Shown piece by piece: positions 45,921 to 53,351 of a stretch of DNA of 64,000 nucleotides (positions are counted from its first letter, which is position 1; the number at the start of each line of letters is the position of its first letter). Location of the stretch: positions 1 through 64,000 of the forward strand of contig NW_014569540.1 in the NCBI RefSeq assembly GCF_000743755.1, given 5' to 3'. The position numbers and the translations under genes are program-made. The notes under the pieces were generated by a model. The model was not told where the DNA came from, did not search any database, and worked only from the letters and a program-made list of their open reading frames with translations. This DNA comes from Blastocystis sp. subtype 4 (taxonomy: Eukaryota).

Positions 45921-47459
45921 ATGCGATCTTTTGTTTTCTTGGCCGCTCTGCTTGTTCTTGTGTCCTGCACTGATATGCCATACATCTGGCCCCTCCCTAA
46001 GGACTATTCCTATGGAGAGAAAACTGTGACGGTAGATGCCCAGCATTTCCGCTTTATCACTTCGAAACAGTCCAACGAACTGATCGAGGCTTTCCACAGA
46101 TACATGGATGTGATTTTCTACAAGAAATCTGCCCTTGTCGAGGAGGGAGTCCGCAGTGCCCGAATCGAGGTGGAAGAGGGAAAAGTTGAACTCCAGCTGG
46201 ATACTGATGAGTCTTACACCCTTGTGATTCCTGATGATGGTTCGGAGATTACCATTAAGGCGAATAATCCTTTCGGAGCTATGCATGGAATTGAGACTCT
46301 TTCTCAGCTCATTGTTTTCGATCCCGTTTCCATGACCTATGTGATTAAGAACGCCCCTTGGAAGATTGATGATGCTCCTCGTTTCAAGCATCGTGGAATT
46401 TTGATGGATACTTCTCGTCACTTTGAGTCGCTTCCTTCCATTAAGAAGTTGATCGATTCTATGACCTATGCTAAGTTGAATGTTCTCCACTGGCACATTA
46501 CCGATTCCCAGTCCAATCCTGCCCAGTCCCTGGCTTTCCCCAAGTGGTGGGAGGGTTCATATACTCCTATGGAGAGATACACGACCATGGATCTTGAGGA
46601 GATTGTTGAGTATGCTCGCATGCGTGGTATTCGTGTGATTCCTGAGATGGATGTGCCTGGACATGAGGCTTCTTGGTGCGCTGGATATCCTGAGGTGTGT
46701 CCTCGTGAGGATTGTCATGAGCCTCTGGATCCTACTTCCGATATGACTTGGGAGTTGATTAATGGAGTGTTGAGTGAATGGTCTGGAAATGAGAAGAGAA
46801 AGGGAATCTTCTTTGATGATTTCTACCATATGGGAGGTGATGAAGTGGATACTAGTTGCTGGAAGAGTACTCAGCGAATTGTGGATTGGATGAAGGAGAA
46901 CAACTTCACTGATCATGATACCTACAAGTACTTCGTAAAGAAGGTCCATGAGTTTGTGAATCAGAAGCAACGTAATGGAATCTACTGGGAGGAGGTCTGG
47001 AACAACTTCGGAACTGACTTGGATAGAAGCACTGTCATTCAGACTTGGTTGAGCAAGAAGACTATGAAGAGCGTTGTGCAGAATGGTTACAGAGTGATTA
47101 TCTCCGATCCTGTTGTTTATCTGGATCATTTGGATCAGACCTGGGCTGACTTGTACAAGGATGAGCCTTTTGAGTTCACTGATGTGCCTGAAGAACAGGC
47201 TTTGGTGTTGGGAGGTGAAGCTTGCATGTGGGCTGAGACTGTTGATGTCTCTGATCTGTACAACACTGTGTGGCCTCGTGCTGGAGCTTTTGCTGAGAGA
47301 TACTGGTCTCCTCGTGAGGTCAACAATGTGGATGCTGCTCATGACAGAATGATGTATTTCCGCTGCTTGTTGAACCAGAGAGGTGTTCCTGCTGCTCCTA
47401 CTAACAATGCTAAGGGTAGAAGTGCTCCTCCAAATCCTGGTAGCTGTTATGCTCAATAA
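45921..47459 (+). CDS. Secreted GH20 beta-N-acetylhexosaminidase (intronless)
   Basis: Signal peptide, PRFKHRGILMDTSRHF, LNVLHWH, EMDVPGH, catalytic HMGGDEV, GGEACMWAE, WPRA. Confidence 0.95.
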   Translation: MRSFVFLAALLVLVSCTDMPYIWPLPKDYSYGEKTVTVDAQHFRFITSKQSNELIEAFHRYMDVIFYKKSALVEEGVRSARIEVEEGKVELQLDTDESYTLVIPDDGSEITIKANNPFGAMHGIETLSQLIVFDPVSMTYVIKNAPWKIDDAPRFKHRGILMDTSRHFESLPSIKKLIDSMTYAKLNVLHWHITDSQSNPAQSLAFPKWWEGSYTPMERYTTMDLEEIVEYARMRGIRVIPEMDVPGHEASWCAGYPEVCPREDCHEPLDPTSDMTWELINGVLSEWSGNEKRKGIFFDDFYHMGGDEVDTSCWKSTQRIVDWMKENNFTDHDTYKYFVKKVHEFVNQKQRNGIYWEEVWNNFGTDLDRSTVIQTWLSKKTMKSVVQNGYRVIISDPVVYLDHLDQTWADLYKDEPFEFTDVPEEQALVLGGEACMWAETVDVSDLYNTVWPRAGAFAERYWSPREVNNVDAAHDRMMYFRCLLNQRGVPAAPTNNAKGRSAPPNPGSCYAQ

Positions 47460-52080: not shown

Positions 52081-52241
52081 ACTACTCTGCACATTACAAG
52101 ATATGGATCAATAATCAAACCATGAACTATTACGATAATTTTTCAAGTCTTTTGAATCAAACCAAAAGTTACTACGTTTCTACGATACGAAGAACTCTGA
52201 CTTCTTGACTATAATGGGCCAGATAGAACAAACAATCCTAA

Positions 52242-53286
52242 CTATGCAATATGAATGACAATATCACTTCTCTTTCCTGTATACTCTGTGTATTTGACTC
52301 CAGCCATATCAAACATTCTTCTAGCTGCAATAGACATATTCGAGTCGTGGTATTTATCTCCTAGATAGATTACTTCGGTAATCCCCGATTGAATGATCAT
52401 CTTGGTACAATTGTTACAAGGGAACAGAGAAACATACAACTAAGCTGATAACTAAAGAGGGAGTCTACTTTGCACCCACGAGCATTTGCAGTATTGATGT
52501 TAAGAATTGCATTCATTTCGGCATGACACACATACATGTACTTGGTATCTAATTCATTCTGTGCATCTCGGCCCCAAGGTAGAGCATCATCGCTACAACC
52601 ACGAGGAAAACCATTGTAGCCTATTCCCACAATTTGATTTTCACTGTTTACAATACTAGAAGTAAGTATATCTAGATTTGAACTACCATGCACCCACTTG
52701 TGTATTAGGATCTATTGATTAGACGTACTCCTCGATTTGACCTTTACTGCGCATTGCACTGAGACATGCTAGTCCCATGAAATACTCATCCCAGCTGATA
52801 TAGTCTTTCCGTTTCTACAATTGACCAGAAGTTAATCCGACTACTGTAGATACAGTCATCTTTCTCGGACTTGGAGCAGGTGTATTTCGACAGAACTCAT
52901 CAGCCAATTGTTTCGCTCGTCTATATCCATAAGTCACCACAATAATATGCTACTCAAATTGATCACGCAACTGTTCCGGAACCTCGGTTTCCTTGAATGA
53001 GTGATCTCGGTAACTCAGAAAGGCATTCTTATTTGGAAGCAAGCGCCTATTACATGAATTCCATATTCCTCACTCACTTTATATTCAGCTCCAAGAACTG
53101 GACTACAACACTCTTATCAGTAGGATCACTGGATGTTCCTTTCTCCGAGAGGTTCTCTTGATTGCTAATATGCTGACTGGGAGTAACCTAGTCATCACGA
53201 TGGTAACATACTCTAACAGTTGCAGGCCACCATGGATAATCGTCTACTTTGACCCAATAGACGTCTACTGATGTGAGACTGGACAT
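52242..53286 (-). CDS. PWWP domain-dCMP deaminase fusion
   Basis: Spliced frame [37 protein letters not shown] continues into [44 protein letters not shown]. Confidence 0.85.
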
Positions 53287-53351
53287 GAGAAAATGATTAA
53301 TCAATGTGTGTAAAACAAACCCTTGCACTGCCTAACAATCATAAAAAGAGT

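Follow-up and report, generated by a model that had tools for sequence, protein, structure and literature searches.

The nearest architectural precedent for a PWWP domain attached to an oligomeric metabolic-enzyme fold is NPAC/GLYR1/NDF, where an N-terminal PWWP domain, which binds H3K36me3 and DNA, stands on a linker before a tetrameric, catalytically inert dehydrogenase-like domain (PMC13144531, as far as its text was available). Other PWWP readers (ZMYND11, BRPF1, ZMYND8, NSD2, DNMT3B, MSH6, PSIP1/LEDGF) are basic and sit on chromatin writers, remodellers or repair factors. PWWP domains that read nucleosomes do so with a cage of three aromatic residues, Y18/W21/F44 in HDGF2 (excerpt of PMC3119473). 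Histones are bound by the negative face of a PWWP domain, and in PSIP1 a basic DNA-binding face adds about 10,000-fold affinity (excerpt of PMC3663649). In dCMP deaminases, catalysis and allostery are defined by the motifs HxE, PCxxC and G(Y/W)N(A/G), and every family member reported so far is a hexamer that dCTP stabilises (excerpt of PMC12088426). The human enzyme DCTD (EC 3.5.4.12, 2w4l) has 178 aa and no folded N-terminal domain. CDADC1 and the tandem dCMP deaminases do have a DCTD-like domain with an extra N-terminal module, but this module is a second deaminase domain and not a reader fold, and CDADC1 prefers dCTP. The excerpts of PMC8070346 and PMC6686228 provide general pathway background only.

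The window analysed here is a 64,000-nt stretch of the genome of Blastocystis sp. subtype 4 (ST4; contig NW_014569540.1), with a GC content of 36-45% and introns of about 30 nt. Exon 7 of the gene described here matches an ST4 protein at 100%, in agreement with this origin. On the minus strand of the window, a PWWP domain and a dCMP deaminase are encoded by one genuine spliced gene (52242..53286, stop included). From the ATG at 53286 to the stop at 52242, eight exons (53286-53218, 53187-53078, 53046-52954, 52920-52845, 52814-52742, 52711-52687, 52655-52469 and 52439-52242) are separated by seven GT..AG introns of 29-33 nt and translate into 276 aa without an internal stop. Introns 1 to 4 (53217-53188, 30 nt; 53077-53047, 31 nt; 52953-52921, 33 nt; 52844-52815, 30 nt) bridge the PWWP part to the deaminase stop-free, the fourth lying at the border of linker and deaminase, while introns 5 to 7 (52741-52712, 30 nt; 52686-52656, 31 nt; 52468-52440, 29 nt) are inside the deaminase. 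A preliminary description of this locus had joined the two parts by four canonical introns without a stop; these are introns 1 to 4, and all motifs that it quoted occur at the minus-strand positions given for them. The stretch between PWWP and deaminase permits 32 stop-free parses, four of which use only four introns. When this 545-nt stretch was shuffled as a chance control, a stop-free path with at most four such introns was found in 4 of 300 cases.

A single 846-nt contig from run X1 covers positions 52239-53254 and lacks all seven predicted introns and no other letter, without a mismatch. It consists of 802 exonic bases, 21 T and 23 bases of adapter, with the poly(T) as a loose end just past the stop and the adapter at the opposite end. 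X1 carries no RNA label on record, but because the contig is spliced and polyadenylated, we take it to be RNA, possibly from the same isolate as the window. The contig begins inside the exon with the PWWP motif, so that the first 32 coding bases are outside its coverage. A repeat alignment at 90% likeness did not recover it, a null result of a kind that can be false. Low-depth contigs from other runs retain introns, namely introns 1-2, gapless, in X3, introns 4-5 in X5 and introns 5-6 in X6, and introns 1-2 and 4-6 are therefore true introns rather than deletions. KAK8793850.1, a 'hypothetical protein' of Blastocystis sp. BT1 (ST4), agrees with the 276-aa model at 276 of 276 residues; the newer annotation thus has the full-length protein, nameless, while the older ST4 model lacks the PWWP part. 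The join between PWWP and deaminase, for which the preliminary description had named RNA as the check, is borne out by this one contig and corresponds to one protein.

The locus might also be read as two adjacent genes that have been joined on paper only, a small PWWP gene with a polyadenylation-made stop and a deaminase that starts at M112. Both older models, of 164 aa in ST4 and of 175 aa in ST1, begin within the linker, as this reading would have it, and contigs cannot reveal starts and lose rare forms. However, the two older models start at different, non-equivalent linker methionines, the linker of Blastocystis sp. 'Blastoise' has none, and no internal methionine is common across the fused linkers. 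The X1 contig is one piece with a single terminal poly(A) and has no internal loose end. The poly(A) addition site, placed at about 52239-52240 by the end of this contig, is followed by a TGTTTGTT element at 52234-52227 (52227..52240 in all), which we take to be the 3'-end element of Blastocystis. No such element occurs between the ATG and the start of the deaminase, even at one mismatch. The upstream coiled-coil gene ends at a stop of its own, a gap of 65 nt separating it from the PWWP ATG, and its transcript is a separate spliced X1 contig; in the gap (53287..53351) the element occurs twice with one mismatch each (53341, 53321). In addition, the same domain order is found in ST1 DNA (the metagenome locus L001), in 'Blastoise' and in Mallomonas. 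The two-gene reading is largely refuted and keeps only a minimal probability. An additional short transcript from an internal start may exist beside the fused form. The available text of PMC12129017 names a 'downstream gene element' without giving its letters, calls mis-joined neighbouring genes a frequent annotation error in Blastocystis and reports that its annotation preferred RNA-supported introns.

The deaminase domain (residues 117-276, exons 5-8, 52245..52814) is complete, as the preliminary description had claimed. Pfam dCMP_cyt_deam_1 (PF00383) matches residues 123-237 with 93.7 bits. The allosteric dCTP/dTTP site of dCMP deaminases is represented by GYNG (residues 161-164, 52610..52621), the catalytic centre by HAE (52517..52525), with H193 as zinc ligand and E195 as catalytic residue, and by PCxxC (52407..52421), with P218 and the zinc ligands C219 and C222. 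Human DCTD (2w4l) has the same motifs and the same fold; it is matched with E 9e-72, is aligned gap-free over residues 116-274 at 65% identity and is the best fold match (Z 19.5). The four highest fold matches by Z are dCMP deaminases without exception, an Atlas search with the whole protein returned deaminase clusters only (0.75-0.76), and among the Foldseek matches listed for the full model there are only deaminase-fold and related chains. Each of the 14 full-length fused proteins has HxE and GYNG, and 13 of them also have PCxxC. The exception is the 'Blastoise' model (P0081), in which PCxxC is replaced by a short hydrophobic run, most likely due to a wrong exon boundary. By every measure applied, to sequence and to model, the catalytic part belongs with the ordinary mononucleotide enzymes. 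A separate observation concerns tandem two-domain dCMP deaminases, which are numerous among the proteins collected (P0001-P0066, P0178-P0222) and come from crustaceans, insects, molluscs and diatoms.

These data bear on a proposal of the preliminary description, that of a chromatin-targeted deaminase, considered here as one that would edit cytosine or 5-methylcytosine in DNA or RNA. Apart from the pairing of domains, this proposal can only draw on weak Pfam APOBEC-like cross-hits (E ~0.006, below cut-off), which derive from the common zinc motif and occur also in unfused enzymes. With AID/APOBEC the protein has only the zinc deaminase core in common; these proteins are far more distant (Z 6.7-8.1) than DCTD with its Z of 19.5 and 65% identity, and the DCTD allosteric motif is intact. 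Membership in AID/APOBEC was rejected on these grounds, the APOBEC models also being below cut-off. Table S5 of PMC12129017, in the part available, lists a single C-5 cytosine methyltransferase for this organism, which may be the tRNA enzyme DNMT2. The DNA deaminase proposal was thus not upheld, an editing function being highly improbable, and the 5-methyl-dCMP angle of the preliminary description has little to rest on.

The fusion is apparently the only dCMP deaminase of the genome. Copy number was taken from the same published InterPro table (PMC12129017 Table S5, as available), whose automated counts for ST4-BT1 comprise one deoxycytidylate deaminase-related protein, one thymidylate synthase and one dUTPase, and no thymidine kinase or deoxynucleoside kinase. 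Because only one such protein is listed, it is probably the sole dCMP deaminase of the cell, and because neither kinase is listed, the cell would depend on dUMP for thymidylate.

The PWWP domain (residues ~8-102, exons 1-4, 52887..53265) has five predicted strands and one helix. Its identity, claimed before by eye, is supported by Pfam PF00855, which matches residues 8-98 with E 3.2e-10 and 40.8 bits (cut-off 25.6) over profile positions 2-89 of 93, and by fold matches to solved PWWP domains. NCBIfam profiles gave no match above cut-off. A first AlphaFold model, computed from 8 sequences for the PWWP part by itself, was poor (pLDDT 63, pTM 0.47), and Foldseek found no match for it at E <=0.001. 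The second AlphaFold model was built from 17 aligned fused proteins, from which ordinary PWWP domains were absent; it has a pLDDT of 67.9 overall (~68-85 in strands and helix) and a pTM of 0.47, and its N-terminal part is a five-stranded barrel followed by a C-terminal helix, with the linker at low confidence. In a fold search against 48,161 chains, all 12 of the listed matches that cover the N-terminal part (residues ~1-114) are PWWP domains (Z 6.1-9.2), the best of those listed being ZMYND11 (Z 9.2, rmsd 3.9, 85 aligned), BRPF1 (8.7) and ZMYND8 (8.3, rmsd 2.3, 84 aligned). The fused relatives remain under the Pfam PWWP cut-off, with 15.5-24.2 bits or no hit.

We consider it possible, with a probability of roughly 0.45, that the protein is a dUMP supplier whose PWWP arms likely tether a predicted hexamer weakly and multivalently to chromatin. 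The preliminary description had likewise suggested a chromatin-tethered nucleotide-pool enzyme. According to what is known of the family, the deaminase would form the usual hexamer, use zinc for catalysis, respond to dCTP as activator and to dTTP as inhibitor, and convert dCMP to dUMP for thymidylate synthesis. Six PWWP domains would project from the ring on flexible linkers; weak and acidic one by one, they could cling together to basic histone tails by avidity, a mode for which no DNA-binding face would be needed. A nuclear location, with histone tails as PWWP ligand, is presumed. The likely purpose would be to provide dUMP near DNA synthesis in a cell that has no annotated thymidine salvage.

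The reader residues bear on chromatin binding of this kind. By alignment alone, all three cage aromatics are assigned in the ST4 domain: Y17 and W20 in the YPWWP motif (53227..53238), according to the cage pattern of PMC3119473 (excerpt), and F54 at the end of strand 3 (53095..53097), by alignment with 12 ordinary PWWP domains. Such a cage could read methyl-lysine. Together with the Pfam match and the five strands and helix, it makes up the likeness to known PWWP readers, and the complete cage and the negative histone-binding face typical of PWWP domains support the tether, as judged from sequence. Nevertheless, among the 16 fused domains a complete cage is found in ST4 alone; the corresponding residues are L/W/L in ST1, and none of the 13 domains outside Blastocystis has all three. 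The fold and the central W-P are kept despite this loss. Among the 12 ordinary PWWP domains the cage is complete in 6 (8 when His is counted). The bulk charge, which is not a surface map, differs as well: the pI is <=6.1 in 15 of 16 fused domains but >=8.6 in 9 of 12 ordinary ones. For ST4 the pI is 5.1, with 12 K+R against 16 D+E in terms of bulk charge, which speaks against a basic DNA-binding surface, although 3 of the 12 ordinary domains are likewise acidic. In contrast to the basic readers on chromatin factors, the ST4 domain is acidic and is attached to an enzyme of nucleotide metabolism.

For ST4-BT1, the available part of Table S5 (PMC12129017) lists two PWWP proteins and eight SET-domain proteins and no AWS and no post-SET domain. 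The only strain whose cage is full therefore has no evident H3K36 writer. As the cage is mostly degenerate, the charge acidic and an H3K36 writer not evident, the canonical two-part reading mode is not a family property, and the case for the tether is weakened; in most fused relatives the contact would be methylation-blind. The same observations fit a different role, in which the PWWP domain binds a non-histone partner, for example a basic or methylated stretch in a protein of the thymidylate pathway or of replication, and thereby builds an enzyme cluster instead of reading chromatin. Loss of the cage and acidic charge in 15 of 16 domains each, with fold and central W-P retained, would be expected for such a partner, as would the lack of AWS and post-SET domains among those listed for ST4. 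The ST4 domain, however, retains all three cage aromatics, and the solved fold matches of the PWWP part, among those listed, are all chromatin proteins. We regard a non-histone partner as a tentative, rather doubtful alternative.

Between the two domains there is a linker (residues ~103-116, 52845..52886) with a predicted flexibility (pLDDT < 50 at 105-116), which contains M112, the start in the older annotation, and an S-P-x-K motif. S-P-x-K is the CDK-type consensus. It is found in ST4 and in three ST1 models, is altered in L001 and is absent in 'Blastoise'. A CDK-type site was rejected as a linker feature of the family because S/T-P-x-K/R occurs in only 6 of 18 fused linkers. A nuclear signal was rejected likewise, K-K/R-x-K/R being found in 4 of 18 linkers and in none of those from Blastocystis. 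Linker lengths in the 18 fused proteins vary between 10 and 113 residues, with 14 in ST4.

The PWWP domain may have no important outside ligand at all. It may instead cap the hexamer and so stabilise or regulate it, or it may be a passenger that has been tolerated since a gene fusion in a compact genome. Its divergence is fast: ST4 and ST1 are identical at 44 of 95 positions in the PWWP part and at 143 of 160 in the deaminase, and ST4 and 'Blastoise' agree at 17 of 94 positions in the PWWP part. The reader residues are not conserved, and close relatives function without a PWWP domain. Linkers of such variable length, predicted to be disordered in ST4, suit a tether better than a fixed cap. A complex prediction of the PWWP domain with two deaminase domains scored 0.02 and favours neither reading. 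For a passenger, it would be unexpected that the domain has remained full length and foldable in lineages that are otherwise dissimilar. We hold a cap or passenger to be unlikely.

NPAC/GLYR1 offers a precedent for the tether, by analogy, as PWWP arms are carried there by an oligomeric enzyme fold. It could equally suggest reversed roles, with a chromatin job coming first and the deaminase ring acting as scaffold and as dCTP/dTTP sensor, for which the allosteric motif is intact. However, the enzyme domain of NPAC is catalytically dead and has an unrelated fold, whereas in Blastocystis every catalytic motif is kept in the only such enzyme listed for the genome. There is also no extra interaction segment, the linker being short. 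Reversed roles are thus very unlikely, and assignment to the class of NPAC/GLYR1-type pseudoenzymes was ruled out by the deaminase fold, which is not that of a beta-hydroxyacid dehydrogenase, and by the intact motifs.

Annotations of the ST1 strains JDR and NandII show the same domain order, and so do those of the distant isolate 'Blastoise' and the ST1 model P0123, where the fusion is additionally mis-joined to the downstream gene. Among 80 metagenome loci only L001, which is ST1-like, has a PWWP-like part; it splices into the same fusion and has 6 of 7 intron positions in common with ST4, intron 5 being missing. This retention of the fusion between ST4 and ST1 supports a function of the attached domain as tether, judging from sequence. 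The architecture search proposed in the preliminary description led to a result that had not been foreseen: the fusion occurs outside Blastocystis in 13 clusters, namely in the golden alga Mallomonas annulata and in 12 others. A profile of the PWWP part only, run over 1.84 billion representatives, gave 18 hits: 1 profile member, 1 Blastocystis-like fragment, 12 ordinary PWWP proteins and 4 new fusions, whose records end short, inside the deaminase. When the deaminase proteins collected were searched with the PWWP profile, 22 of 240 scored > 20 bits, mostly profile members and their cluster mates, and two more fusions were obtained. A word-based search that used the PWWP alignment yielded just 6 proteins, none of them new to the set. 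The range of the fusion is probably wider because, in clusters made at 50% identity, an unfused representative may conceal fused members. In the precomputed Pfam column PWWP is listed for none of the fused relatives, and the architecture was therefore overlooked. On the other hand, many stramenopile deaminases have no PWWP domain, including the named brown algal, oomycete and two chrysophyte enzymes examined. This, the lack of K-K/R-x-K/R in Blastocystis linkers and the rapid divergence of the PWWP part count against the tether.

A common origin of the fusions is not demonstrated since a Blastocystis-only PWWP profile does not favour the other 13 fused domains (1.3-15.8 bits) over 12 ordinary PWWP domains (13.7-28.0 bits), the latter having been chosen by a related profile. 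A deaminase tree was computed with 77 rows, from which tandem and partial domains as well as P0042, P0123 and P0169 (duplicates or fragments) had been excluded. Its backbone is open. That the 13 fused rows form one exclusive clade was rejected (p-AU 0.019), a result which is weakened by truncated records scored as unfused. An old fusion with many losses and two independent fusions are both compatible with these data.

Other N-terminal additions were encountered among the relatives. The dCMP deaminases of Peronospora effusa and P. farinosa (P0253, P0256) have a look-alike of a BED zinc finger at residues 1-85. For the N-terminal part of P0253, the one of the two used in these searches, the Atlas gave 0.93 with 19 of 30 hits to zf-BED, and Pfam zf-BED was found with E 0.16. 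This part could be a second tethering route or a transposon remnant that was joined by the gene model; as a lead by analogy, it hints that DNA- or chromatin-directed tags have been added to deaminases more than once. In Thraustotheca clavata (P0258), residues 1-120 form another extension, which by eye resembles a Myb/SANT-type helical domain with a Cys/His finger. Pfam gave no convincing match to it at E 10.

As an extension of the tether reading, which we consider speculative and improbable as a whole, the tether might be gated by nucleotides. Because dCTP stabilises the deaminase hexamer, the balance of dCTP and dTTP would set the number of clustered PWWP arms, and the enzyme would dock and feed dUMP only when thymidylate is short. 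Stramenopiles would then have built such anchored dCMP deaminases several times, with PWWP in Blastocystis, PWWP in chrysophytes and a BED-like finger in downy mildews. If true, this would be a genetically hard-wired test of on-site DNA-precursor synthesis.

Placement of DNA-precursor enzymes at chromatin is an old question, and the arguments mostly come from transient complexes. With a reader-type domain built into a single-copy dCMP deaminase, local nucleotide supply becomes directly testable, and this would matter more in Blastocystis, for which the published table lists neither thymidine nor deoxynucleoside kinase. The fused family also offers a natural PWWP series between a full cage and no cage, from which the function of a cage-less PWWP domain can be learnt. 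At minimum, the ST4 gene model and the older ST1 gene model are corrected and a 'hypothetical' protein can be named. Both families are known, while the transcribed PWWP-dCMP deaminase architecture, on a housekeeping enzyme, is apparently undescribed. The preliminary description knew of no account of it, and our literature searches for PWWP with dCMP or deoxycytidylate deaminase, judged by title and start of abstract and with most subscription journals outside their scope, likewise returned no relevant one. These searches found no paper on Blastocystis and PWWP and none that combined dCMP deaminase with Blastocystis. Deaminase, histone and chromatin go unmentioned in the main text of PMC12129017, and in PMC10733785 Blastocystis, PWWP and fusion are all absent.

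The neighbouring genes were also inspected. The downstream gene (52107-51256, minus strand) codes for a Cys-rich multi-CxxC finger which, by eye, resembles zinc fingers of chromatin proteins; Pfam gave no hit. The same Cys-rich neighbour follows the fusion in ST1 (in L001, and erroneously joined in P0123). Further along the minus strand, a domain search revealed ankyrin repeats followed by a histone deacetylase domain (~49983-47480), apparently one intron-split gene. On the plus strand, a long intron-free ORF (45921-47459), unusual among its intron-rich neighbours, codes for a family-20 beta-hexosaminidase. The upstream gene (~56049-53352, minus strand) codes for a long coiled coil with a hydrophobic C-terminal stretch, a pattern reminiscent of a tail-anchored golgin.
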